NCBI GenBank assembly: GCA_037382465.1
Contig: JARRPX010000004.1
Coordinates: forward strand, 76,204 to 140,203
DNA length: 64,000 bases
Origin: Anaerolineales bacterium
Lineage (GTDB): Bacteria > Chloroflexota > Anaerolineae > Anaerolineales > E44-bin32
Direction of reading: 5' to 3'
Made by a program: the position numbers and the translations under genes. This document shows, one piece after another, positions 5,421 to 18,504 of the stretch. The notes under the pieces were generated by a model. It searched no databases. It saw only the letters and a list, made by a program, of their open reading frames with translations, and had not been told where the DNA came from. The number at the start of each line of letters is the position of its first letter. Position 1 is the first letter of the stretch.

Positions 5421-6983
5421 TTGACGAAGGCGCGCAAAGTGAAAAACGATATTATTCTAGATTTCCAACATGTAACCAAAAAATTTCCGGGTGTAGTTGC
5501 GCTCGACGATGTCACTTTACAGGTCGAGCGGGGGGAAATCCACGGTCTCTGTGGGGAAAACGGCGCGGGGAAGTCCACTTTGATGAAGATACTTTCCGGC
5601 GTCCACCCCTTCGGCACGTACGAAGGATCGATTCTCTACGAAGGCAAGGAACTCAAGCTGGAGAACCGCGCCATCCGGCGGGCAAGCGAGGCGGGAATCG
5701 CCATCGTTTATCAGGAGTTGACCCTCGTGTCGAGCATGACCGTGGGTGAAAACATCTACCTGGGGAAAGAACCCAGAGAAAACGGCTTCATCAACTGGAA
5801 TAAACTCTACTCCGATACCCAGAAGGTTCTGGATAAATACAATCTCGACGTCGAACCGCAGGCGATCGTCGGAAACCTCGGCGTCGGCAAACAGCAGATG
5901 GTGGAGATCGCCAAGGCTCTGGCCGTCGACGCCAACGTACTTATTTTGGACGAACCCACGAGCGCGCTCACGGAAGCGGAAACCGATCAATTAATGGAAA
6001 TCATCCGCTCTTTGAAATCTCACGGCGTCACGTGCATATATATCTCCCACAAACTCGATGAATTCTTCCGTATTGCAGACTGCATGACCATCCTGCGAGA
6101 TGGAAAAGTCGTCGACACGCTGCCGACGAGCGAACTAAGCCATGAACAACTGGTCAAAATGATGGTCGGCCGTGAGATGCACAAGCGCTTCCCACCCAGC
6201 AAGCGCAAACCCGGCAAAGTCATCATGGAAGTGGAAGATCTGCATGCCCAGGATCCGAACGACCCCAATCGAACGGTGCTCAACGGCGTTACCTTCGATT
6301 TGCGGCGCGGGGAAATTCTGGGAATCGCCGGTCTGATGGGATCAGGACGCACAGAGTTGGCCATGACCCTGTTCGGTGAGTACGGCAAGATCACCCAGGG
6401 TCATATTTTCCTGGACGGTGAAGAGATCCAGCCCCACTCTGCCAGCGCTGCGATTCAAAAGGGCCTGAGCTTGGTCCCGGAAGACCGCAAAGGGTACGGT
6501 CTGATCCTGATCCAATCCGTGCGCAGGAACATCTCATTACCCAACCTGAGTCAATTTTCCTCTTTCATGCGCATCGACCGCCTGGCGGAACTTCGGGCGA
6601 CGATGCAGCAATCCAAGAGCCTGGATATTAAGGCGCCCAGCCTGGAAGTTCCCGTCAACACCTTATCCGGCGGCAACCAGCAGAAAGTCGTGATTTCGAA
6701 GTGGCTGATGTCAAAACCGAAAGTGCTCATCATGGACGATCCCTGCCGGGGCATCGACGTCGGCGCGAAATTTGAGATTTACAAACTGATGACCGAACTG
6801 GCCGAGAAGGGGGTTTCGATCATCATGACTTCCAGCGAATTGGAGGAAGTACTGGGCATGTGCGACCGGGTGCTGGTCATGCACGAAGGGCGCTCGAACG
6901 GCTTGCTCGACATCTCCGAAGCCAGCCAGGAACGTATCATGGCACTAGCAACCGGCATCGCAGAAAGTGAGCCGGCGAAATAA
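5421..6983 (+). CDS. xylG: xylose-type sugar ABC transporter ATP-binding protein with tandem NBDs (CUT2 family)
   Basis: 520 aa with two ABC domains (GENGAGKST ... LILDEPT; LSGGNQQK ... LIMDDPCRGIDVGAK). It is collinear with E. coli XylG. An alternative start is the GTG at 5439 (MKNDIILDFQHVTKKF). Confidence 0.85.
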   Translation: MTKARKVKNDIILDFQHVTKKFPGVVALDDVTLQVERGEIHGLCGENGAGKSTLMKILSGVHPFGTYEGSILYEGKELKLENRAIRRASEAGIAIVYQELTLVSSMTVGENIYLGKEPRENGFINWNKLYSDTQKVLDKYNLDVEPQAIVGNLGVGKQQMVEIAKALAVDANVLILDEPTSALTEAETDQLMEIIRSLKSHGVTCIYISHKLDEFFRIADCMTILRDGKVVDTLPTSELSHEQLVKMMVGREMHKRFPPSKRKPGKVIMEVEDLHAQDPNDPNRTVLNGVTFDLRRGEILGIAGLMGSGRTELAMTLFGEYGKITQGHIFLDGEEIQPHSASAAIQKGLSLVPEDRKGYGLILIQSVRRNISLPNLSQFSSFMRIDRLAELRATMQQSKSLDIKAPSLEVPVNTLSGGNQQKVVISKWLMSKPKVLIMDDPCRGIDVGAKFEIYKLMTELAEKGVSIIMTSSELEEVLGMCDRVLVMHEGRSNGLLDISEASQERIMALATGIAESEPAK

Positions 6984-8323: not shown

Positions 8324-9245
8324 CTAGCCGTCACCCATCTCCGGCGCTTCCCAGCCGATGGTGTCCCATTCATGCGGGATGCCTTTATCATCCAGGAGTG
8401 CCTCGTACTCCTTCAAATTATCCGCCGTGATGACATCCACGCCGGTATCGATGACGCCGTTGACCACCCCCATTTGCGTCGTGGCCGCCGCTTCACCCTG
8501 CGTGGCGATGAGATAGATCAACTGTACCGACTTGTAGCCCATATCGAATTCCCTTTGAGCCACCGTAGCGTCGATCACGCCCTCCTTGATCCCGTTAATG
8601 ATGTCCGTCGTGGCATCGAAACAAACGAGCTTCGTCAGGCCCACGCGGTCGGCCTCCTTGATCGCCGTCGCCCACGCAGGGCCGTTGTAGGCATAGACCC
8701 CAAAGGCACCGGCCAAATCCGGGTGCGCAGATAGCACGGAATTTGCCAATTCCAGCGCCTGCGCCGCGTCTTCCCTGTCGGTGACGGGCTCAAGCACAAC
8801 GATCTGCTCGTCAACGGCATCCAGGAACCCCTGCGTCCGCTGCAACGAATTCAATGCCGTGTCCGAACCGCGGCTGATCCCCACAACCCCACCGTTGGGC
8901 AGCAGCTCCGTCATCGTTTTTCCTGCTTCGAGACCGGCGGTGTAGTTGTCCGTGCCGATATAAACCAATGAGATAGACCCCGCAATGGGGGGTGTGTCCA
9001 GCGTCGTAACGATGATTCCCGCCGCTTCCGCCTGCCGCATCACCGGCTCCAGCGCGCTGGGATCCGAGGGAGCGATGGCAATGCCGGTGACACCCTGGGC
9101 GATGTAGGTTTCCATCGTCTGAATCTGGGATGCGACGTCCTCCACCGGTGTCACGAAGAAAATCGCTTGATCGGAACCCAAACCGAGGTCGGCAGCGGCC
9201 GCCATTACCCCCCCCGAAAACTAGAGTAATGCGCAAGGTTTTCAT
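8324..9245 (-). pseudogene. type I periplasmic-binding-fold sugar-binding protein, frame-broken at a G8/C8 run near the 5' end
   Basis: The ATG at 9245 follows a strong SD (GAAGGAAGGAGCGAT-ATG) and encodes [12 protein letters not shown].... The conserved 293-aa PBP reading frame (8324-9205) is in the +1 frame. A run of 7 rather than 8 C at 9208-9215 would join them into [33 protein letters not shown].... Confidence 0.6.
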
Positions 9246-9354: not shown

Positions 9355-10140
9355 TCATTCATCGAGATTGACGGAGTAATCGTCCCTGGCACCGATCATG
9401 TACGCCACCACTCGCTCACGAAACGCATGGATGTCCCCTTGAATGGGCCGATCACATACCTTCCGTCCATGACGCAAGACCATCACGCGATCGCCGACCT
9501 GATGGATATCCTCCAGGCGGTGACTGATGATGATGATAGAACAGCCCTGAGATTTTAGCTGGCGGATCAGTTCCAGCACCTTTCCCACAGAGATGACGTT
9601 CAGAGCCGCGGTTGGCTCATCCATGATGATGATCCTGGCATCGAAAGCCGTCACACGACTGATGGCGACCGCCTGTCGTTGACCTCCCGATAAATGCCTG
9701 ACCTTCAGACTCACGCAATCGATGTCGATCCTGAGGTCCTCGATCAGACGCAACGATTCCAGTTCCATCGTGCGTTTGTCGAGCAGCCGAACGGGGCCAA
9801 ATCCCCAGCGGATATATTCACGTCCCAGGAACATGTTCGCCGCCACATCCAGATTGTCCACCAATGCAAAATCCTGATAGACCATTTCGATGCCCAATGC
9901 CCGCGAGTCTTCCGGATTCCCGAACCACACCTGGCGGCCATCGATAAATATTCGTCCCCCGTCTGGAACGTGCGCACCGCTGAGCACCTTCATCAGCGTG
10001 GATTTCCCAGCCGCATTATCGCCCACAAGGCCAAGCACCTCGCCGCGCCTAAGAGTCAAATCCACGCCGCGAAGCGCCTGGATGGCTCCGAAGTTCTTGC
10101 GAATATCGTGCATCTCGACGCGTGCGGCCGTATCATCCAC
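9355..10140 (-). CDS. sugar-type ABC transporter ATP-binding protein, single NBD
   Basis: 261 aa with Walker [10 protein letters not shown], signature LSGGQRQ, Walker B IIIMDEPT and H-loop ISHRL. Confidence 0.85.
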
Positions 10141-10152
10141 TCGAGTTGCTCC

Positions 10153-11040
10153 TCAGTTCGTGCTGCGCCTGCGCCGCCACATATCGTAAGTAACCGCGAT
10201 CACCAGCACGGCACCCAAGACGGTCTCCTGTACGTATGGAGACATATTGACGATGACCATGCCGTTGAACATGACCCCCATGATGGCTGCGCCGAGGATT
10301 GCCCCGGTTATCGTCCCTTCACCCCCCCGCAGGCTTGTTCCTCCGATGACCGTAGCCGCAATGGCCCATAATTCGTACGTGGATCCGACGGTCGGTGTGC
10401 CTTGGCCCAGGCGGGAAGCCAGGAGCAATCCCACCAACCCGGCCATGACGCCACTGCTTATGTAGCAAAAACTGCGTACCCGATCGACGTTGATTCCGGC
10501 CACGCGCGCAGCTTCGATATTTCCCCCTACGGCATAGATGTGCCGGCCGAGTGTCGTGGAGCGAAGTATGAAAGCCGCGATTACGGCTACGACGACCAGG
10601 ATGATGAACATTACGGGTATCTGAAAGATCTCACCTTGTCCCAGTTCCAGAAACGGGAAATCCAGAGGGAAGACAATCGGATATCCGCGCGTGATGAACT
10701 TCGCCATGCCCCTGGCGACCAACCAGGTACCCAGGGTGATGATAAAAGAAGGAATTTGCAGCTTGGTGACGCAGAAGCCATGCCATCTGCCAACGAGACC
10801 CGAAAAAGTAAGTACGAGCAGGATGGAAGGCAAGATGGCCAAAGGCGGAATGGGTCCCACACCTTTCACCATAAAGGTTGCCGCAAGCACGCCGGTCAAT
10901 GCGGTCATCGATCCCACGGATAAATCGATTCCGTCTGTGATGATGACCAGAATTTCGCCGATCGCCAGGAGGCCAAACGTCGCCACAAAACGCATGATCA
11001 CTTTCAGATTTGCCAGCTTCAGGGTCTTTTTATCTTCCAT
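10153..11040 (-). CDS. sugar-type (RbsC/XylH-like) ABC permease, short N-terminus
   Basis: 295 aa with motifs [10 protein letters not shown] and [14 protein letters not shown]. The alignment to the in-window XylH begins only at ...NLFRQM..., so TM1 is missing. In-frame TAA and TGA lie 10 and 8 codons upstream of the ATG. Confidence 0.8.
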
Positions 11041-11160
11041 GCGACCGAAATTGCCTCCCGTTCAGAATTACGGCGCATCCGTTCGAATTTCCTGGAACGA
11101 TTTTGGTGGGAATCGACTTCTACCTGTAGATGCAGTATAGGCGAAGATATATTTCCATGG

Positions 11161-11200
11161 CTAGGGGGCATCCCTAAGTAAAATAGGGGATTTCCCCCTC
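11161..11200 (-). promoter_or_regulatory. G4/C4 inverted-repeat motif (copy B) in the divergent region between the ABC permease and the response regulator
   Basis: The reverse complement GAGGGGGAAATCCCCTATTTTACTTAGGGATGCCCCCTAG matches copy A (3701-3731) at 24/31 positions. Its orientation relative to the downstream transporter operon is the same as for copy A. Confidence 0.35.
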
Positions 11201-11240
11201 TTTTCCAGTGCCGCTCGGCGCATCTCGAAATATGCAATAA

Positions 11241-11249
11241 TGGTATAGT
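11241..11249 (+). promoter_or_regulatory. extended -10 promoter (TGG-TATAGT) placed for a leaderless regulator mRNA
   Basis: TATAGT at 11244-11249 ends 6 nt before the ATG at 11256. No SD sequence lies between them. Confidence 0.35.
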
Positions 11250-11255
11250 ATTGGA

Positions 11256-12394: not shown

Positions 12395-12919
12395 ATGCAA
12401 CCGAGATTGAAAGTCTATAACATTTCGAAGTACATCGGTTCGCTGCCGGTCTTAGAGCACGTAAGCTTTGAGGTGTTCCCCGGAGAAGTCGTGGGGCTGG
12501 TCGGCAGGAGCGGCGCGGGAAAATCCCTGCTGGCCAGCATCATAACCGGATTATCGATGCCGGATACGGGAACCATGATCTTCGAAGGACGCAAGGTTCA
12601 ATGGCCCTTTCACGCGCAAAAATTGGGCGTTGAAGCCATCCACCAGAGACCGCGTCTGGCTGAGCATCTCGACATCACAGCCAATATCTTCCTTGGCAGA
12701 GAATTGCGGATCCCGATCCTCGGGCGGCGTCTGAACATCCTCGACCGGCGCAGGATGAACAACGAAGCGGCGCGCATCCTCGAGCAACTCAATTTCCGAT
12801 TTCCCTCGCTGCGCGAAAAAGTGGCCAATTTATCCAGCGAACAACGGCAGATGCTTTCCATCGCCCAGGTGATGACCCATACGGCGAAGTTGATCGTCGT
12901 GGATGAGCCTACAAAGTAG
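12395..12919 (+). CDS. ABC nucleotide-binding-domain-like protein truncated immediately after Walker B
   Basis: Walker A is GRSGAGKS. The signature is degenerate (LSSEQRQ). Walker B is LIVVDEPT, then K and a TAG stop. The D-loop/H-loop region (about 55 aa) is absent. Confidence 0.7.
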   Translation: MQPRLKVYNISKYIGSLPVLEHVSFEVFPGEVVGLVGRSGAGKSLLASIITGLSMPDTGTMIFEGRKVQWPFHAQKLGVEAIHQRPRLAEHLDITANIFLGRELRIPILGRRLNILDRRRMNNEAARILEQLNFRFPSLREKVANLSSEQRQMLSIAQVMTHTAKLIVVDEPTK

Positions 12920-12939
12920 CCTCCCACCGCACCGACGAG

Positions 12940-13860
12940 GTGAGCCGTGAGGAGATCGTGGCTGCGCTGGTAGGCACCACAAACCGGCAGCAGCTCACGC
13001 CTGCCATCTGGGCGCTCGACAATTACTACCGCGCCCGAGAGCAAGCAGAAAATCTGCGCCACCAACAAAGACTTCTCGAACAGAATCTTGCGGTGCAGGA
13101 CACCCGCATCCGCAGTCTCATCGAACAAATGACCGAACAGGTAAAGGCGCTGGATCAGGCGAACATCGCCTTGCAAGATGCGCATCGGCGGTTGCTCACC
13201 GAACGCGAACAGGAACGCAAACATTTAGCCAGAGAACTGCACGATCAATTGATTCAGGACTTACTGAGCGTAAATTACCAGTTGGAGGAAAGTGAAGCGC
13301 ACGCCGATGTCGGCCCGGAACTCAAGGAGGATCTCCTTCAAATCCGCAACACCATCCGCATGTTCGTCTCCGACCTGCGCAGGATCTGCAGCGATCTGCG
13401 TCCGCCGACAATTGACAGCCTTGGATTGGGCTCTGCACTGCAATCCTACACGCAAGATTGGAGTGAGCGCACGGGCATCGATCTGACGCTCAACCTGGAC
13501 AGCAATTTGGGTCGTTTGCCCGAAGCGATCGAATTGTCGATTTTCCGCATCGTACAGGAGGGTCTCAACAACGTTCGCAAACACGCCATGGCCAATCGCA
13601 TCGACGTCACGCTTGAACACACATCCGTCCGCGCCTTGATGATCTCCATATCCGATGACGGCAGCGGACTGCAGGACGACTTCGATCTCTCTGCCCTTTC
13701 GAGGGAGGGACACTTCGGGCTGTTGGGAATCAGCGAAAGAGTCGCTCTTCTGGGAGGCCGATTGGACATGAAAAACAAGCCCGAGGGCGGATTGCTTCTT
13801 CAAGCCGAGATACCTCACCCCAGAGTCGATCTCCCGGTAAAAATGGCGGAAGAACGGTGA
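12940..13860 (+). CDS. soluble HisKA_3-type sensor histidine kinase (NarX/DegS class) with coiled-coil; N-terminus retains an ABC-domain C-terminal motif
   Basis: H-box is ERKHLARELHDQLIQDL and the HATPase motifs are NNVRKHA, DDGSGL and GHFGLLGISERV. No TM segment is present. The N-terminal SREEIVAALVG resembles SHEQLVKMMVG at the end of NBD1 of the in-window XylG. The frame is open from 12907, overlapping the upstream ORF in the -1 frame. Confidence 0.8.
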   Translation: MSREEIVAALVGTTNRQQLTPAIWALDNYYRAREQAENLRHQQRLLEQNLAVQDTRIRSLIEQMTEQVKALDQANIALQDAHRRLLTEREQERKHLARELHDQLIQDLLSVNYQLEESEAHADVGPELKEDLLQIRNTIRMFVSDLRRICSDLRPPTIDSLGLGSALQSYTQDWSERTGIDLTLNLDSNLGRLPEAIELSIFRIVQEGLNNVRKHAMANRIDVTLEHTSVRALMISISDDGSGLQDDFDLSALSREGHFGLLGISERVALLGGRLDMKNKPEGGLLLQAEIPHPRVDLPVKMAEER

Positions 13861-13964: not shown

Positions 13965-15398
13965 ATGGCTCCAACACCACGTTCGACGCTGAGCGAAGAT
14001 TTCGCAGCCCATTTGAATTGTCCCATCTGCGGAGAAGCGAGGCTGATGGTTCATCACACCTCCTCCCTCCCGGATTTCGTTACCTGCCATAGTTGCTCGT
14101 CCGCCTTCGTCGTCGAGGAAGGTGGAGAACGGGTTCTCTTTGGGAAGATCAACGATCAATACCCGCGTACGCAGCAATTTGCATTGAAACAATGGGTCAT
14201 GCTGGAAGCCATCGAACGCCGCGCTTCCGACGAGCGGTTGGAAGGCGAGGACACGACCGCCCCACCAGAAGTCGAACAAGCGCCCACCCCGCAAATCCCT
14301 AAAGCCGCCCCAACGCCGCCGCCCTCCGCGGAAAACCTCTTGCGTTCGGCAGCCGTTCCCATCCCCACCGAGCCTGACCTTGAATGGCCGCCGGAGAAAT
14401 TGATCCCTCTGGAGCCGGAACCGGAATCCGAACCCGTCCAGACTCCAAAGGTTGAACCCGGCCCGCCGACTCCCGCGAGCGTTGAACCCGTCATGCAGGA
14501 ACCGGTGCAGCCATCCCCAATTCCACCCATACCTTCCCATCTTGAACCTCCACCGGGTGTGGACCTCGAAAGAATCCTCCGCGTCGAGGAACCCGCAGAA
14601 GAGCCAGCGTTTCCCGGCGATACGCCGGTATTTCCCCAGGGTATGAAGCTGAAGCAGCCTGCGGAAGGCCTGGCTGAACCTGCTCCCACGGCGGAAGTGC
14701 AAGCCGAACCAGGCACAGCGGTTCAGGCTGCCCCCGTAAAGCCCGCTTCTGAACCTCCCGTGCTCGAGCTGCGCGAAAACGATCCGCCGCCCGGAATTCG
14801 ATACCGCGTCGTCCTTCGGGGAGAGAAAGTGATTTTCCCCAAGAAAGCCTGTGCCCACTGCCAGGCAACACCGGTGCGCGGCCGCTTGACGATCATCGGT
14901 GACCTTCCCCAGGGGCAGAAAATCGGCCAACGTAAGAAGGCAACCTTCAACCTTCCTCTATGCGCAGAATGTCACGATCGGGCTCAGAGCGTCACGCCGG
15001 AGGAAAAGGCGGAACGGCTTCAAGCCAACCTGATCTCCATGCTTGTCATGATGGTGCTCCTCGTGGCGGCTCTTGCCTGGGGCCTTGACCTTCAGGAGGA
15101 TCCAATCTCTGGTGTAATTATCATTGGTATTCTCGCCCTGGTGGGATATTTTGTCCCGTCCTATTTCCTGTTGAGACGCATCAAACCTTCTCCCCCCTCA
15201 CCCAACGCCGCCTACATTCGCTCGACGCTTCTCATCCCCGACGATGCGCAGGGCCTGGAGACGGCCTTCGAATTCCGCAACAAGGATTATGCACAGCAAT
15301 TCTTCGAGGCCAACGAATTCGTTACCCTGGGAAAGCCCATCCAGGTTAAAGACCGCTCCTTTTCCAGGATGCGGCCGCCGGAAACCCCTGCGTCGTAA
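13965..15398 (+). CDS. hypothetical membrane protein: two zinc-ribbon-like CxxC pairs, long Pro/Glu-rich spacer, two TM helices
   Basis: It contains CPICGE...CHSC near the N-terminus and CAHC...CAEC at about aa 300. Two hydrophobic helices are LISMLVMMVLLVAALAWGL and VIIIGILALVGYFVPSYFLL. Confidence 0.6.
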   Translation: MAPTPRSTLSEDFAAHLNCPICGEARLMVHHTSSLPDFVTCHSCSSAFVVEEGGERVLFGKINDQYPRTQQFALKQWVMLEAIERRASDERLEGEDTTAPPEVEQAPTPQIPKAAPTPPPSAENLLRSAAVPIPTEPDLEWPPEKLIPLEPEPESEPVQTPKVEPGPPTPASVEPVMQEPVQPSPIPPIPSHLEPPPGVDLERILRVEEPAEEPAFPGDTPVFPQGMKLKQPAEGLAEPAPTAEVQAEPGTAVQAAPVKPASEPPVLELRENDPPPGIRYRVVLRGEKVIFPKKACAHCQATPVRGRLTIIGDLPQGQKIGQRKKATFNLPLCAECHDRAQSVTPEEKAERLQANLISMLVMMVLLVAALAWGLDLQEDPISGVIIIGILALVGYFVPSYFLLRRIKPSPPSPNAAYIRSTLLIPDDAQGLETAFEFRNKDYAQQFFEANEFVTLGKPIQVKDRSFSRMRPPETPAS

Positions 15399-15618: not shown

Positions 15619-18504
15619 ATGACACAAGACCACATCCAAGTTGTAGGTGCACGGGAACACAATCTGAAGAATATCTCCGTCGACATTCCTCGCAATAAAC
15701 TCGTCGTGATATCCGGCATATCCGGATCAGGTAAATCATCGCTCGCCTTCGACACCATTTTCGCAGAAGGCCAACGCCGTTACGTTGAATCCCTCTCTGC
15801 ATACGCACGCCAATTTCTCGGCCAGCTCGACAAGCCTGACGTGGATTACATCGAGGGGCTTTCTCCCGCTGTATCGATAAATCAACGCGGGGTGTCCCAC
15901 AATCCTCGATCCACAGTCGGAACCGTGACGGAAGTGTATGATTATCTGCGTCTGCTTTTTGCACGCGCCGGAATCCCACACTGTCCCATCTGCAATCGAG
16001 AAGTGCGCCAGCAATCGGCGCAGGAGATCGTAGATGCCGTCGAGGCGCTGCCGGCCGACTCGCGCGTGTTGATCCTGGCGCCGTTGATTCGCGGCCGCAA
16101 AGGGACACACCGTGCGGTTTTCGACGAAGTGCGAAGGTCGGGTTTCGTGCGTGTACGGGTGGATGGCGTGATGCAATCCGTCGACGACGAGATCGAGCTG
16201 GATCGCTACAAAACGCACACCATCGAAGTCGTCGTGGATCGTCTCATCGTCGAAGCAGATGCCGAACATGCATCGGAAAACGGATTCCGGTCACGCCTCA
16301 CGGATTCGATCGAGACGGCACTGCGTTGGGGTGATGGCACGATGCTCGTCGCCGACGTTACTTCAGAGCAGGAACCCAAAATCACGCCGTATTCGGAGTT
16401 CCTTGCCTGCCCCGAGCACGGCACGATGCTCTCGGAGATCGAGCCACGCACATTCTCTTTCAACACGCCCCACGGCGCATGTCCGGAATGCCAGGGATTG
16501 GGAATTAAACTGGAGATCGATCCCGATCGCATCATCCCCGATCGATCCATTTCCATTGCCGACGGCGCGGTCGCCGCACTGGAATGGTCCAACCAAAGCC
16601 GCGAACGTAGAGGCTATTACTGGCAGATGGTCGAAGCCGTCGCCGAGCACTATGGCGTGAGCCTCGATGCGCCGGTCGCAGAACTCGAAGACGAAAAATT
16701 GGATTTGATCCTGTATGGGACGAACAACGAAAAATTACCCGTTCATTACGTGAACACTGAAGGCCGCAAAACGACATTCAAGACGACTTTCGAAGGCGTG
16801 ATCGGAAATCTCGAGCGGCGCTATCAGGAGACGCAGTCCGATGCGGTTCGCAACCGGATTCAAGAATTCATGGCCGAGCGGCCGTGTCCCTCCTGCGGCG
16901 GCCGGCGCTTGCGCGCAGAAGCCCTGGCCGTTCTTTTGGACGGCATGAACATCGTCGAGATCACGAAGTGGCCCGTCCAACGCACCCTGAAGTGGGTACA
17001 GAAATTACAGGGAGACGACAGTCCATTGTCCGACCGTCAACGGAAAATCGCCGATCGAGTGCTGAAAGAGATCGCCGATCGTCTCGGCTTCCTGGTGAAC
17101 GTTGGCCTGGATTACCTCACCCTCGACCGTTCGGCGAGCACGCTCTCCGGCGGCGAGGCGCAGCGCATCCGGCTGGCGACCCAGATTGGATCGCGTTTGA
17201 TGGGCGTGCTCTACGTGCTCGACGAACCCTCCATCGGCCTTCATCCCCGCGACAACAAACGCCTCATCCGGACACTGGAGGAGATGCGCGATCTGGGCAA
17301 CTCCGTGCTCGTCGTCGAGCACGACGAAGCCACCATCCGCGCTGCGGATTGGGTCATCGATCTGGGTCCGGGAGCCGGCGAATCCGGTGGAGAAATCATG
17401 GCGGAAGGCACGGTAGCTCAAGTCACGCGCAACAAGAATTCGGTTACCGGGCAATTCCTCGCCGGAAATCTCTGCATCGACACTCCCAAGGAACGGCGCA
17501 CAGGAAACGGACACACCCTGTCCGTCCTCGGCGCACGCGAGAACAACCTCAAGGACATCGACGTCGACATCCCCCTGGGAACGTTTGTATGCATCACGGG
17601 CGTTTCAGGCTCCGGCAAATCCACGCTGATGGTGGAGGTGCTTTACAAAGCGTTGGCGCAGAAACTGCACGGGGGACGGCAGCAGCCGGGTGCCTATTCC
17701 GCACTCGAAGGGGTCGAATTCGTAGACAAGGTCATCAACATCGACCAGAGTCCGATTGGCCGCACGCCGCGCTCCAACCCCGGCACGTACACAGGTGTTT
17801 TCGATCACGTGCGCGCGTTGTTCGCCGAGTTGCCCGAATCCAAAGTGCGCGGCTATAAGCCGGGACGTTTCTCTTTCAACGTCCACGGCGGCCGCTGTGA
17901 AGCCTGCCAGGGACAGGGACAACTGCGCATCGAAATGCAGTTCCTGCCGGATGTGTACGTGCCGTGCGAGGTATGCCACGGCGCCCGCTTCAACCGCGAG
18001 ACTCTGCAGGTGCGCTTCAAAGAACATTCCATTGCCGACATCCTCGACATGACCATCCATGAAGCCGCAGAGTTTTTCGAGGCATTTCCGGCGATCGTAC
18101 GCAAACTCGATACGTTGCAGGAGGTGGGGCTGGGCTACATCAAAATCGGCCAGCCGGCACCCACCTTATCCGGTGGCGAGGCCCAACGCGTGAAACTCTC
18201 GCGCGAACTCTCGAAACGCAGCACCGGCCACACACTCTACGTTCTCGACGAGCCTTCTGTGGGATTGCACGCTGCGGATGTGTATAAATTGATCGACGTG
18301 CTGCAGCGCCTGGTGGACCAGGGCAACACCGTCTTGATCATCGAGCACCATCCCGACATCATCAAAGTCGCCGACTGGGTGATCGATCTCGGCCCGGAAG
18401 GGGGAGATCAGGGCGGAGAAATCGTCGCGGTCGGAACCCCGGAAGAGCTCAGCGGCGTGGCCGCATCGTATACCGGTCAATTTTTGCGAGAGCAGTTGAA
18501 ATAG
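15619..18504 (+). CDS. uvrA: excinuclease ABC subunit A
   Basis: 961 aa. The start is canonical ([61 protein letters not shown]). Two ABC modules and the zinc-finger cysteines are present. Confidence 0.97.

Follow-up and report, generated by a model that had tools for sequence, protein, structure and literature searches.

Two overlapping reading frames in an Anaerolineales genome are halves of one gene for a histidine kinase with an ABC nucleotide-binding domain

Why does an ATP-binding cassette (ABC) domain end directly after its Walker B motif, and why does an overlapping frame that encodes a histidine kinase open with what looks like the end of such a domain? This question is raised by a 64,000-nucleotide (nt) stretch from an Anaerolineales bacterium (assembly GCA_037382465.1, contig JARRPX010000004.1, positions 76,204 to 140,203), hereafter called the window. 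An open reading frame (ORF) on its forward strand (12395-12919) encodes 174 residues with a Walker A motif (GRSGAGKS), a signature (LSSEQRQ) and a Walker B motif (LIVVDEPT), matches the Pfam model ABC_tran at profile positions 1-136 of 137 (E = 5.4e-26) and ends K-TAG. The -1 frame, open from 12907 after a TGA at 12904-12906, reads AYKVASHRTDEVSREEIVAALVG and then continues into HisKA_3 (E = 1.9e-13) and HATPase_c (E = 5.9e-9) domains. An earlier reading of the letters, made without database searches (the sequence-only reading), had picked out these motifs, the K-TAG end and the open -1 frame, all of which are present, and had proposed either a decayed fusion of a nucleotide-binding domain (NBD) with a kinase or a naturally split pair of genes. 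We found that the two ORFs are the halves of one gene, which encodes a 537-amino acid (aa) cytoplasmic HisKA_3 kinase with an N-terminal CUT2-type (ribose/xylose) NBD as its input.

The evidence comes first from an intact protein of 537 aa, P0001, whose two ends are identical to the two pieces in the window at 172 of 172 and 314 of 315 residues, 486 of 487 in total, a match far beyond chance. Absent from the window are the last base of codon Thr173 and codons Gly174-Arg222, which read GLLSYHQQKKLLALIRQWQDEGVSIIFCSKDLEHLFAVTDRVIALRHGR in P0001. This 148-nt segment encodes 49 residues of the NBD core, with the D-loop and the helix after it, the H-loop strand and one further strand, and its absence causes the frame shift and the TAG at 12917-12919. 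With this segment put back, the window copy agrees with P0001 at all but one of the 487 residues that it retains; as assembled, the frame is broken. The 3' part runs from the NBD end SREEIVAALVG through a conserved junction, LTPAIWALDNYYRAREQAE, and a long coiled-coil to a HisKA_3 dimerization and histidine phosphotransfer (DHp) domain with His332 and to HATPase_c. The sequence-only reading had likened SREEIVAALVG to SHEQLVKMMVG and SQERIMALATG, and had named the loss of this likeness in alignments as grounds for giving its idea up. Both strings are present as the ends of the two NBDs of the XylG encoded at 5439-6983, and the C-terminal similarity survives MAFFT alignment, in which SREEIVAALVG shares columns with a stretch near the C-terminus of the 261-aa ATPase encoded close by, 14 residues short of the stop of that protein. 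The window holds no paralogue of the NBD-kinase elsewhere in its 64 kb.

Uninterrupted alleles of the same species are found in three independent assemblies, namely L001 (JGI 3300056879), L002 (Logan SRR35816893) and L088 (JGI Ga0315554_1000896). Around the gene they are 98.5-99.3% identical to the window at the nucleotide level, and the window is short by exactly 148 nt. A search of a large protein collection with the kinase frame gave the same picture, as 114 of the top 120 homologues carry both ABC_tran and HisKA_3 and are mostly about 530-545 aa long. We also scanned 185,579 species, one genome per species, and found a relative of the NBD-HisKA_3 kinase in 277 species genomes; locus details were taken from the best 80 of these 277. 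In all of these 80 loci the match begins at residue 1-6, ends at residue 526-537 and is uninterrupted, with no stop codon inside it. The uninterrupted NBD-kinase orthologues that the sequence-only reading had proposed to look for thus exist, and the residues that the window lacks are part of their NBD core.

The other account, a natural two-gene split in which a 174-aa half-NBD and a separate 306-aa soluble kinase act together, draws its support solely from the ORF map of the window. It is refuted by the intact same-species alleles and by orthologues that are single genes, and we give it practically no credence. The two frames overlap and the second has no plausible start, since the GTG at 12940 abuts GACGAG with no spacer, and 49 residues of the NBD core would be absent from the pair. 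No split orthologue was seen among the best 80 loci or about 240 listed proteins, so the other ground that the sequence-only reading had named for giving its idea up, two separate complete genes at orthologous loci, did not materialise either. Six matches in the top 120 are kinase-only; the two that were inspected, P0025 and P0085, begin 181 nt and 8 nt, respectively, from the ends of their contigs and were rejected as natural splits, being fragments, and the remaining four sit on short contigs.

If the gene is one, how did it come to be broken? Set against orthologous loci (L004, L005, L018 and L057), the window shows three clean gaps within 3.7 kb, and none has a length divisible by three. 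The binding-protein gene lacks 128 nt (9211/9212), the permease gene 125 nt (11023) and the NBD-kinase gene 148 nt (12912/12913). The binding-protein start at 9245 is now out of frame with the gene body (ORF 8324-9205), and the permease is without the first 48 residues (transmembrane (TM) helix TM1) of its 337-aa orthologues. The rest of the 17 kb compared (4.6-21.8 kb) has small indels only, of at most about 11 nt and mostly outside genes. The codons that flank the gaps are essentially unchanged, and the coding sequence beside the 148-nt hole shows no other decay.

A sister metagenome-assembled genome (MAG) of the same species, L003 (GCA_037382565.1, JARRPU010000178.1), is 99.5-99.9% identical to the window and also has gaps, of 90 nt (permease 3' end), 135 nt (permease) and 246 nt (kinase), all in frame, and of 13 nt in uvrA, at window coordinates 10156-10245, 11023-11032, 12913-13014 and 17958-17970. 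Two of these sites, those of the 135-nt and 246-nt gaps, coincide with gaps of the window, and the lengths differ. The 246-nt gap gives the 455-aa P0002 ('ATP-binding cassette domain-containing protein'), which is likewise a damaged copy, and the L003 uvrA product is 779 aa long against 961. Homopolymers provide a further link. L002 has only two of at least 7 nt, both A8 (954-961 and 2968-2975), and both lie inside the two missing segments that L002 allows to be checked (those of 125 and 148 nt), each about 24 nt past the left edge of the gap; the third junction falls in a C8 run (window 9208-9215), and the whole 64 kb has only four such runs. This A8/C8 linkage suggests an artefact tied to the platform or to polishing. 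Because gaps of different length occur at the same sites in two near-identical genomes and are linked to homopolymers, a sequencing, assembly or polishing artefact is the likely origin of the gaps.

That all three gaps fall in one functional module counts the other way, and could also mean real inactivation. In that case the gaps would be real, very recent deletions, the binding protein, the permease and the NBD-kinase would all be pseudogenes, and the sensing and uptake module would be switched off. Such an event is in line with the intact state of uvrA, the regulator, the 261-aa ATPase and xylGH in the window, with the damage to a second same-species MAG at two of the sites, and with a 3-nt microhomology (GTA) at the 13-nt gap of the L003 uvrA, a feature frequent in real deletions. 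However, it would require two near-identical genomes to have lost different lengths of DNA independently at two shared sites, it leaves two missing segments that hold the only A8 runs of the locus and so point to a technical cause, and it has to accommodate a copy without other decay that is still identical to the intact allele at 486 of 487 residues. Furthermore, L003 also breaks the essential uvrA, and the 148-nt deletion junction had no match in the JGI metagenome contigs, where the intact junction is present. We therefore consider real deletions rather unlikely.

The junctions themselves were of little help. The 148-nt junction (CCTAC/CGGATT...GGCCGA/AAAGTAG, slashes at the edges of the gap) has no microhomology, which again speaks against a real deletion, and at the 125-nt junction the one repeat present, CGGTCTTT, is offset and is not what simple slippage would leave, so that no clear mechanism of microhomology or slippage emerged. 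A strain-recombination boundary at 12912, suspected when L001 appeared 99% identical on the left and 93% on the right, was also rejected; L001 and L002 show only 4 differences over 2.8 kb, and the 93% stems from the variable downstream gene. The decayed fusion of the sequence-only reading accordingly holds as far as an internal loss and a frame break are concerned, and an assembly error is a more probable cause than a mutation. What looks like a domain cut at Walker B is the 148-nt gap, one of three such gaps in the locus, and is not to be taken as biology without the reads.

The intact protein was modelled with AlphaFold2 (AF2) from a 25-sequence alignment (mean pLDDT 77.8). The NBD spans residues 1-242, with block-mean pLDDT values of 80-93 save for the loop 101-120, and in Foldseek it matches the importer ATPases FbpC and MalK (E about 1e-17). 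One uninterrupted helix then runs from 247 to 352 through His332 and into the DHp domain, followed by a second DHp helix (357-382) and the catalytic domain (389-525), and about 85 residues of helix link NBD and kinase. The model has no TM segment, in agreement with the soluble kinase that had been described from the letters. In the 25-sequence alignment, the junction LTPxIWALDxYYRAREQAE is nearly invariant and the phospho-accepting H332 (HDQ) is found in 25 of 25 sequences; N-box N442, G1-box D470, G472 and G474 and G2-box G491, L492 and L493 of HATPase_c are invariant, and G494 is conserved at 90% or more. The kinase part thus has every feature of a HisKA_3 kinase domain, including an adjacent NarL/LuxR-type regulator, and no named equivalog; its core matches the MctS, UhpB, LiaS and NarX models, the best being MctS at 138.8 bits against a cut-off of 700, with no match at equivalog level.

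The state of the NBD motifs was then read from a census of 178 non-redundant members, with a solved ATPase used to confirm the D-loop and H-loop positions. Of the Walker A residues, Gly40 and Gly42 are present in 178 of 178 members and Lys43 in 176; Q84 of the Q-loop is present in 177, the window included, and D170 of Walker B in all 178. The signature is LS(S/G)E(Q)RQ in place of LSGGQ, with E149 for the second Gly in every member (LSSEQRQ in the window). At the catalytic-base position, 171, Glu (as in the window) and Asp occur 87 times each, the D-loop of intact members reads LLSY where the canonical form is SALD, and in the 167 sequences listed H-loop position 203 is occupied by N, K, Q, D or T, the five commonest residues, which do not include His. 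The NBD therefore has the fold, Walker A, Q-loop and Walker B Asp of an ABC ATPase, and departs from it at the signature, D-loop and H-loop. By its motifs it would keep what ATP binding needs; it has probably lost what hydrolysis needs, because it has no H-loop His, carries LSxEQRQ as its signature and, in half of the members, has Asp for the catalytic Glu. The most conserved stretch of the NBD, IHQxPxLAxxLDIxxNIFLGxE, is almost invariant, and in known ABC structures the Q-loop and helical-subdomain region faces the coupling helix of the permease. The best NCBIfam matches of the window NBD are the first halves of RbsA, AlsA and AraG (E = 2.7e-34 to 2.2e-28), at scores far below the equivalog cut-off (118.8 bits against 745 for RbsA).

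How far does this architecture extend? Members are about 530-545 aa long and share the order of NBD, junction motif, coiled-coil, HisKA_3 and HATPase_c. All of the best 80 loci come from MAGs, and all but one (a Limnocylindrales MAG) bear the label Chloroflexota or Chloroflexi or that of a lower taxon in it (class, order or family), mostly Anaerolineae, with Caldilineae, Chloroflexia and Thermoflexia also represented; every match for which the source gives an organism is a Chloroflexota MAG. Clustering at 50% identity placed the full-length family in about five clusters with 41-54% identity to P0001, and in a representative search the tandem CUT2 ATPases came next after the family, with 28-35% identity at NBD1. 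When the most distant member, P0126, was used as the query, 1,810 clusters at 90% identity were obtained at E<=1e-20, a list that may include partial matches; both ABC_tran and HisKA_3 are present in all 120 of the P0126 matches listed, and those with a name come from Anaerolineales or Chloroflexi MAGs. Source labels for members are only 'ATP-binding cassette domain-containing protein' or 'signal transduction histidine kinase'. The sequence-only reading knew of no characterised NBD-HisKA_3 fusion, and we came to the same result: no description of an ABC_tran-HisKA_3 protein was found in the literature, where absence is not proof, and the 60 sequence matches and 50 fold matches listed from the PDB are ABC ATPase entries only, with no NBD-kinase fusion. 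The NBD-HisKA_3 family of Chloroflexota is thus large, homogeneous and, as far as our search of the literature shows, uncharacterised.

Two proteins outside this architecture carry a similar NBD. P0138 (L087, 823-3351; 842 aa) begins with a CUT2-like NBD, which is also without the H-loop His (VSR), and continues with three PAS domains, HisKA_3 and HATPase_c; a gene for a regulator with a receiver domain (REC) and GerE lies directly upstream. P0193 (JGI 3300075153, a 1,981-nt contig) is a 549-aa protein with the same degenerate CUT2-like NBD, the junction motif and about 60 aa of coiled-coil, followed by a MalT-like tetratricopeptide repeat region and a LuxR/GerE helix-turn-helix (HTH), with no kinase. 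It would be a one-component version reminiscent of MalK-MalT, with the qualification that it comes from a single short contig and may be a chimera. To judge from these two sequences, other signalling architectures seem to have taken up the NBD as an input module.

What, then, does the NBD of the kinase sense? The genomic context points to sugar transport. A CUT2 component lies within -7 to +3 kb of the kinase gene in 47 of the 49 loci with at least 5 kb of upstream flank, and a REC-GerE-REC regulator accompanies the kinase in most loci with enough flank. Going upstream on the same strand, the first gene is that of the regulator in 27 of 76 loci and that of a permease or binding protein in about 45. 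Several types of arrangement were distinguished. Type A (window, L004, L005, L018 and L057) has a binding protein, a single-NBD ATPase and a permease divergent from the regulator and kinase. Type B (L085) has the order regulator-permease-kinase, with the kinase start directly after the permease stop. Type C (L086) has the order regulator-permease-lipoprotein binding protein-kinase with no other ATPase gene in the operon, and a CUT1 sugar transporter operon is divergent from it. Type D (L084 and 12 more) has the order double binding protein-single NBD-permease-kinase. In types E and F (L091 and L092) the transporter is complete and has a tandem ATPase; its genes are either divergent from the kinase gene or directly upstream of it, the order in L092 being binding protein-tandem ATPase-permease-kinase.

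From domain content, motif states, fold, synteny and distribution we infer ATP binding and docking by the kinase, a direction for its signal and a regulatory target. The overall explanation that we prefer, and hold to be somewhat more probable than not, is that of one broken gene whose intact product docks on a CUT2 permease as a non-hydrolysing NBD and reports the occupancy of the binding protein. The kinase dimer would take the NBD positions on the CUT2 permease dimer, with ATP bound and not hydrolysed. Docking of a sugar-loaded binding protein on the permease would drive closure of the ATP-bound NBDs, the movement would travel down the long coiled-coil to the DHp domain, and the resulting kinase/phosphatase switch would alter phosphorylation of the REC-HTH-REC regulator, which may control the adjacent sugar-uptake operon. 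In type A loci such as the window, the permease is shared with the canonical 261-aa ATPase, and the kinase would share it or compete for it. The strongest argument for placing the kinase in the NBD positions is provided by types B and C, where the only NBD partner of the permease in the operon is the kinase.

Permeases of these two types deserve a separate remark. PermB340 and PermC340 (L085 7978-9000 and L086 6925-7947) are 35-38% identical to the transport permease of the window, and their cytoplasmic loop, which reads YALGGNERALLVSGVN or YALSNSERALLVCGVN, differs from that of the window permease. This difference could be a co-adaptation of the permease to the fused NBD.

Pairing between NBDs, which the sequence-only reading had suggested, offers a different input. 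In that case the kinase NBD would form a heterodimer with the 261-aa single-NBD ATPase, replacing a tandem NBD1-NBD2 unit and reading the ATPase cycle directly. Single-NBD CUT2 ATPases of 256-261 aa do occur in the kinase clusters of types A and D and some others, about 24 of 76 loci, and the 261-aa ATPase is the closest relative of the kinase NBD seen (38% identity; the tandem CUT2 ATPases listed reach 28-35%). However, a single-NBD gene is absent from about 30 loci that have a permease beside the kinase (some of them with a binding protein too), the pairing cannot apply to types B and C, and other loci carry a complete tandem ATPase. The single NBDs are fully canonical and able to homodimerise, and in a heterodimer the degenerate signature and the missing H-loop would land in different ATP sites and cripple both. 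The pairing is conceivable for the locus type of the window and is not general, and we regard it as improbable. Orthologous operons that encode a permease but lack a single-NBD ATPase are numerous, which makes permease docking preferable as a general model.

The kinase might also need no membrane partner at all. A free cytoplasmic sensor of ATP, or energy charge, in which ATP-driven dimerisation of the NBD switches the kinase, would suit a protein that has no TM segment and that keeps Walker A while its catalytic residues are degenerate, as expected of a binding switch. The near-universal linkage to CUT2 permease and binding-protein genes, including the adjacent stop and start with the permease, would then be unexplained, as would the near-invariant Q-loop/NIFLGxE block, which faces the permease in transporters. 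The chance that the protein is such a sensor appears slim.

Several points weigh against permease docking as set out above. The case for it draws on synteny and motif conservation. In the tandem-ATPase loci (L091 and L092) both NBD sites of the permease would already be filled, so that the kinase would have to compete for them or bind elsewhere. A homodimer of the kinase NBD would have both ATP sites degenerate, which is unusual, and ATP binding is itself a prediction. In addition, all members for which the source gives an organism are uncultured MAGs. With these points in mind, a wider proposal is offered tentatively. The whole architecture of a binding-protein-dependent ABC importer, with an extracellular sugar-binding lipoprotein, a CUT2 permease dimer and an NBD dimer, may have been turned into a transmembrane receptor, in which the NBD would no longer power transport and would serve as an ATP-dependent clamp read by the fused kinase; the same NBD module would perhaps be reused with PAS-kinase and MalT-like/LuxR outputs.

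The features of the locus are collected in Table 1.

Table 1. Features of the NBD-kinase locus in the window
Feature	Position	Strand	Basis and remarks
Sugar-binding protein gene	8324..9245	-	blastn vs L004, tblastn vs L004 and L018, sequence; 128 nt absent at 9211/9212
Single-NBD CUT2-type ATPase, 261 aa, fully canonical motifs	9355..10140	-	ABC_tran E = 1e-26; NCBIfam matches are the NBD1 halves of YtfR, XylG and RbsA
CUT2-type (BPD_transp_2) sugar permease gene	10153..11040	-	blastn and tblastn vs L002, L004, L018 and L088; 125 nt absent at 11023
Divergent intergenic region between the transporter operon and the regulator-kinase operon	11041..11255	.	ORF map and repeat search
REC-GerE (LuxR HTH)-REC response regulator, 352 aa	11256..12314	+	Pfam: two Response_reg stretches and GerE; 80 nt upstream of the kinase gene
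NBD-histidine kinase gene, 5' part	12395..12912	+	Codons 1-172 and 2 nt of codon 173; Walker A, Q-loop, LSSEQRQ, Walker B
148-nt gap junction	12912..12913	+	blastn vs L001, L002, L004 and L088
NBD-histidine kinase gene, 3' part	12913..13860	+	Lys223-Arg537; 314/315 to the P0001 tail, Pfam, AF2

From its position we call the 352-aa regulator the putative cognate regulator of the NBD-kinase. Its REC-LuxR HTH-REC layout is unusual; among the loci with Pfam domains listed, the same layout (344-360 aa) stands beside the NBD-kinase in L002, L003, L084-L086, L091 and L092. The divergent intergenic region in front of it is probably a promoter region, and it contains direct repeats, TAGGGGGCATCCC (11162-11174) and TAGGGGATTTCCC (11184-11196), 22 nt apart, which may be candidate binding sites of the regulator.

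On the transporter side, CUT2 ATPases are usually tandem proteins of about 500 aa, and half-size ones such as the 261-aa ATPase are unusual. Single-NBD CUT2-type ATPases of 256-261 aa with canonical motifs share clusters with the NBD-kinase in locus types A and D (for example, L084 6753-7523). Orthologues of the window binding protein carry Peripla_BP_4. Large binding proteins of 713-721 aa are encoded at L084 4366-6510, L091 10885-13050 and L057 2329-4470; those of L084 and L091 have two tandem Peripla_BP_4 domains (Pfam), and the binding protein of the window aligns twice along the 713-aa product of L057.

Downstream of the kinase, 13965-15398 encodes a 477-aa protein whose N-terminal zinc-ribbon is followed by a long Pro-rich middle part and, close to the C-terminus, by a hydrophobic segment. 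The zinc-ribbon gives a weak match to Lar_restr_allev, below the cut-off, and the hydrophobic segment is TM-like by eye. The gene is syntenic in type A loci at just 64-77% identity and is the most variable gene of the neighbourhood.

How does the NBD-kinase compare with known systems? With the CUT2 ATPases (RbsA, XylG, AraG, MglA and YtfR), the family NBD has in common the IxQ..L...L.V.ENIFLGRE block and the S.E.IV..MVG C-terminal ending. It differs from them as a single NBD fused to a kinase, with no H-loop His, LLSY for a D-loop, an LSxEQRQ signature and, often, Asp for the catalytic Glu.

Among transporter-linked kinases, the BceAB transporter controls the conformation of BceS (bioRxiv 10.1101/2020.02.28.969956). 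BceAB-BceRS resembles the arrangement proposed here in that the state of an ABC transporter is the input of a kinase without a sensory domain of its own, and in that a transporter operon is regulated. However, the Bce transporter is a peptide-antibiotic exporter and its kinase is a separate protein anchored in the membrane by two TM helices, whereas the family kinase is soluble, carries its NBD covalently, has no TM helix and neighbours CUT2 importer genes (BPD_transp_2 and Peripla_BP_4). In PstSCAB-PhoU-PhoR, the state of an importer passes from the NBD PstB via PhoU to a kinase without a periplasmic sensor (PMC6978683). That relay is non-covalent, runs through the adaptor PhoU and starts from a working ATPase, PstB, whereas here there is one polypeptide and the NBD looks non-catalytic.

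The core of the NBD-kinase matches the UhpB model. In UhpABC, the transporter-like UhpC, a member of the major facilitator superfamily that has given up transport, is the receptor and is separate from the HisKA_3 kinase UhpB. MalK, an ABC NBD, sequesters the LuxR-type regulator MalT non-covalently. In LuxP-LuxQ, XylFII-LytS and TorT-TorS, a periplasmic sensor of the ribose-binding-protein type feeds a two-component kinase that controls sugar uptake genes. There the binding protein touches the periplasmic domain of the kinase, whereas here the signal would cross the membrane via an ABC permease. The NBD-kinase belongs to none of the Bce, Pst, UhpC and MalK-MalT systems.

To our knowledge, transporter-coupled sensing (Bce, Pst/PhoU/PhoR, DctA/DcuS and UhpC) is known only in the form of non-covalent partnerships, and the coupling is hard to study. 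In the NBD-kinase the coupling is hard-wired in one polypeptide, and nature provides variants with a dedicated permease only, with a permease and a binding protein, and alongside a single or a tandem ATPase. The family thus makes it testable how closure of an NBD becomes a kinase signal, and whether a degenerate, non-hydrolysing NBD can serve purely to sense conformation. With this family, the ABC NBD would join the input domains of two-component systems.

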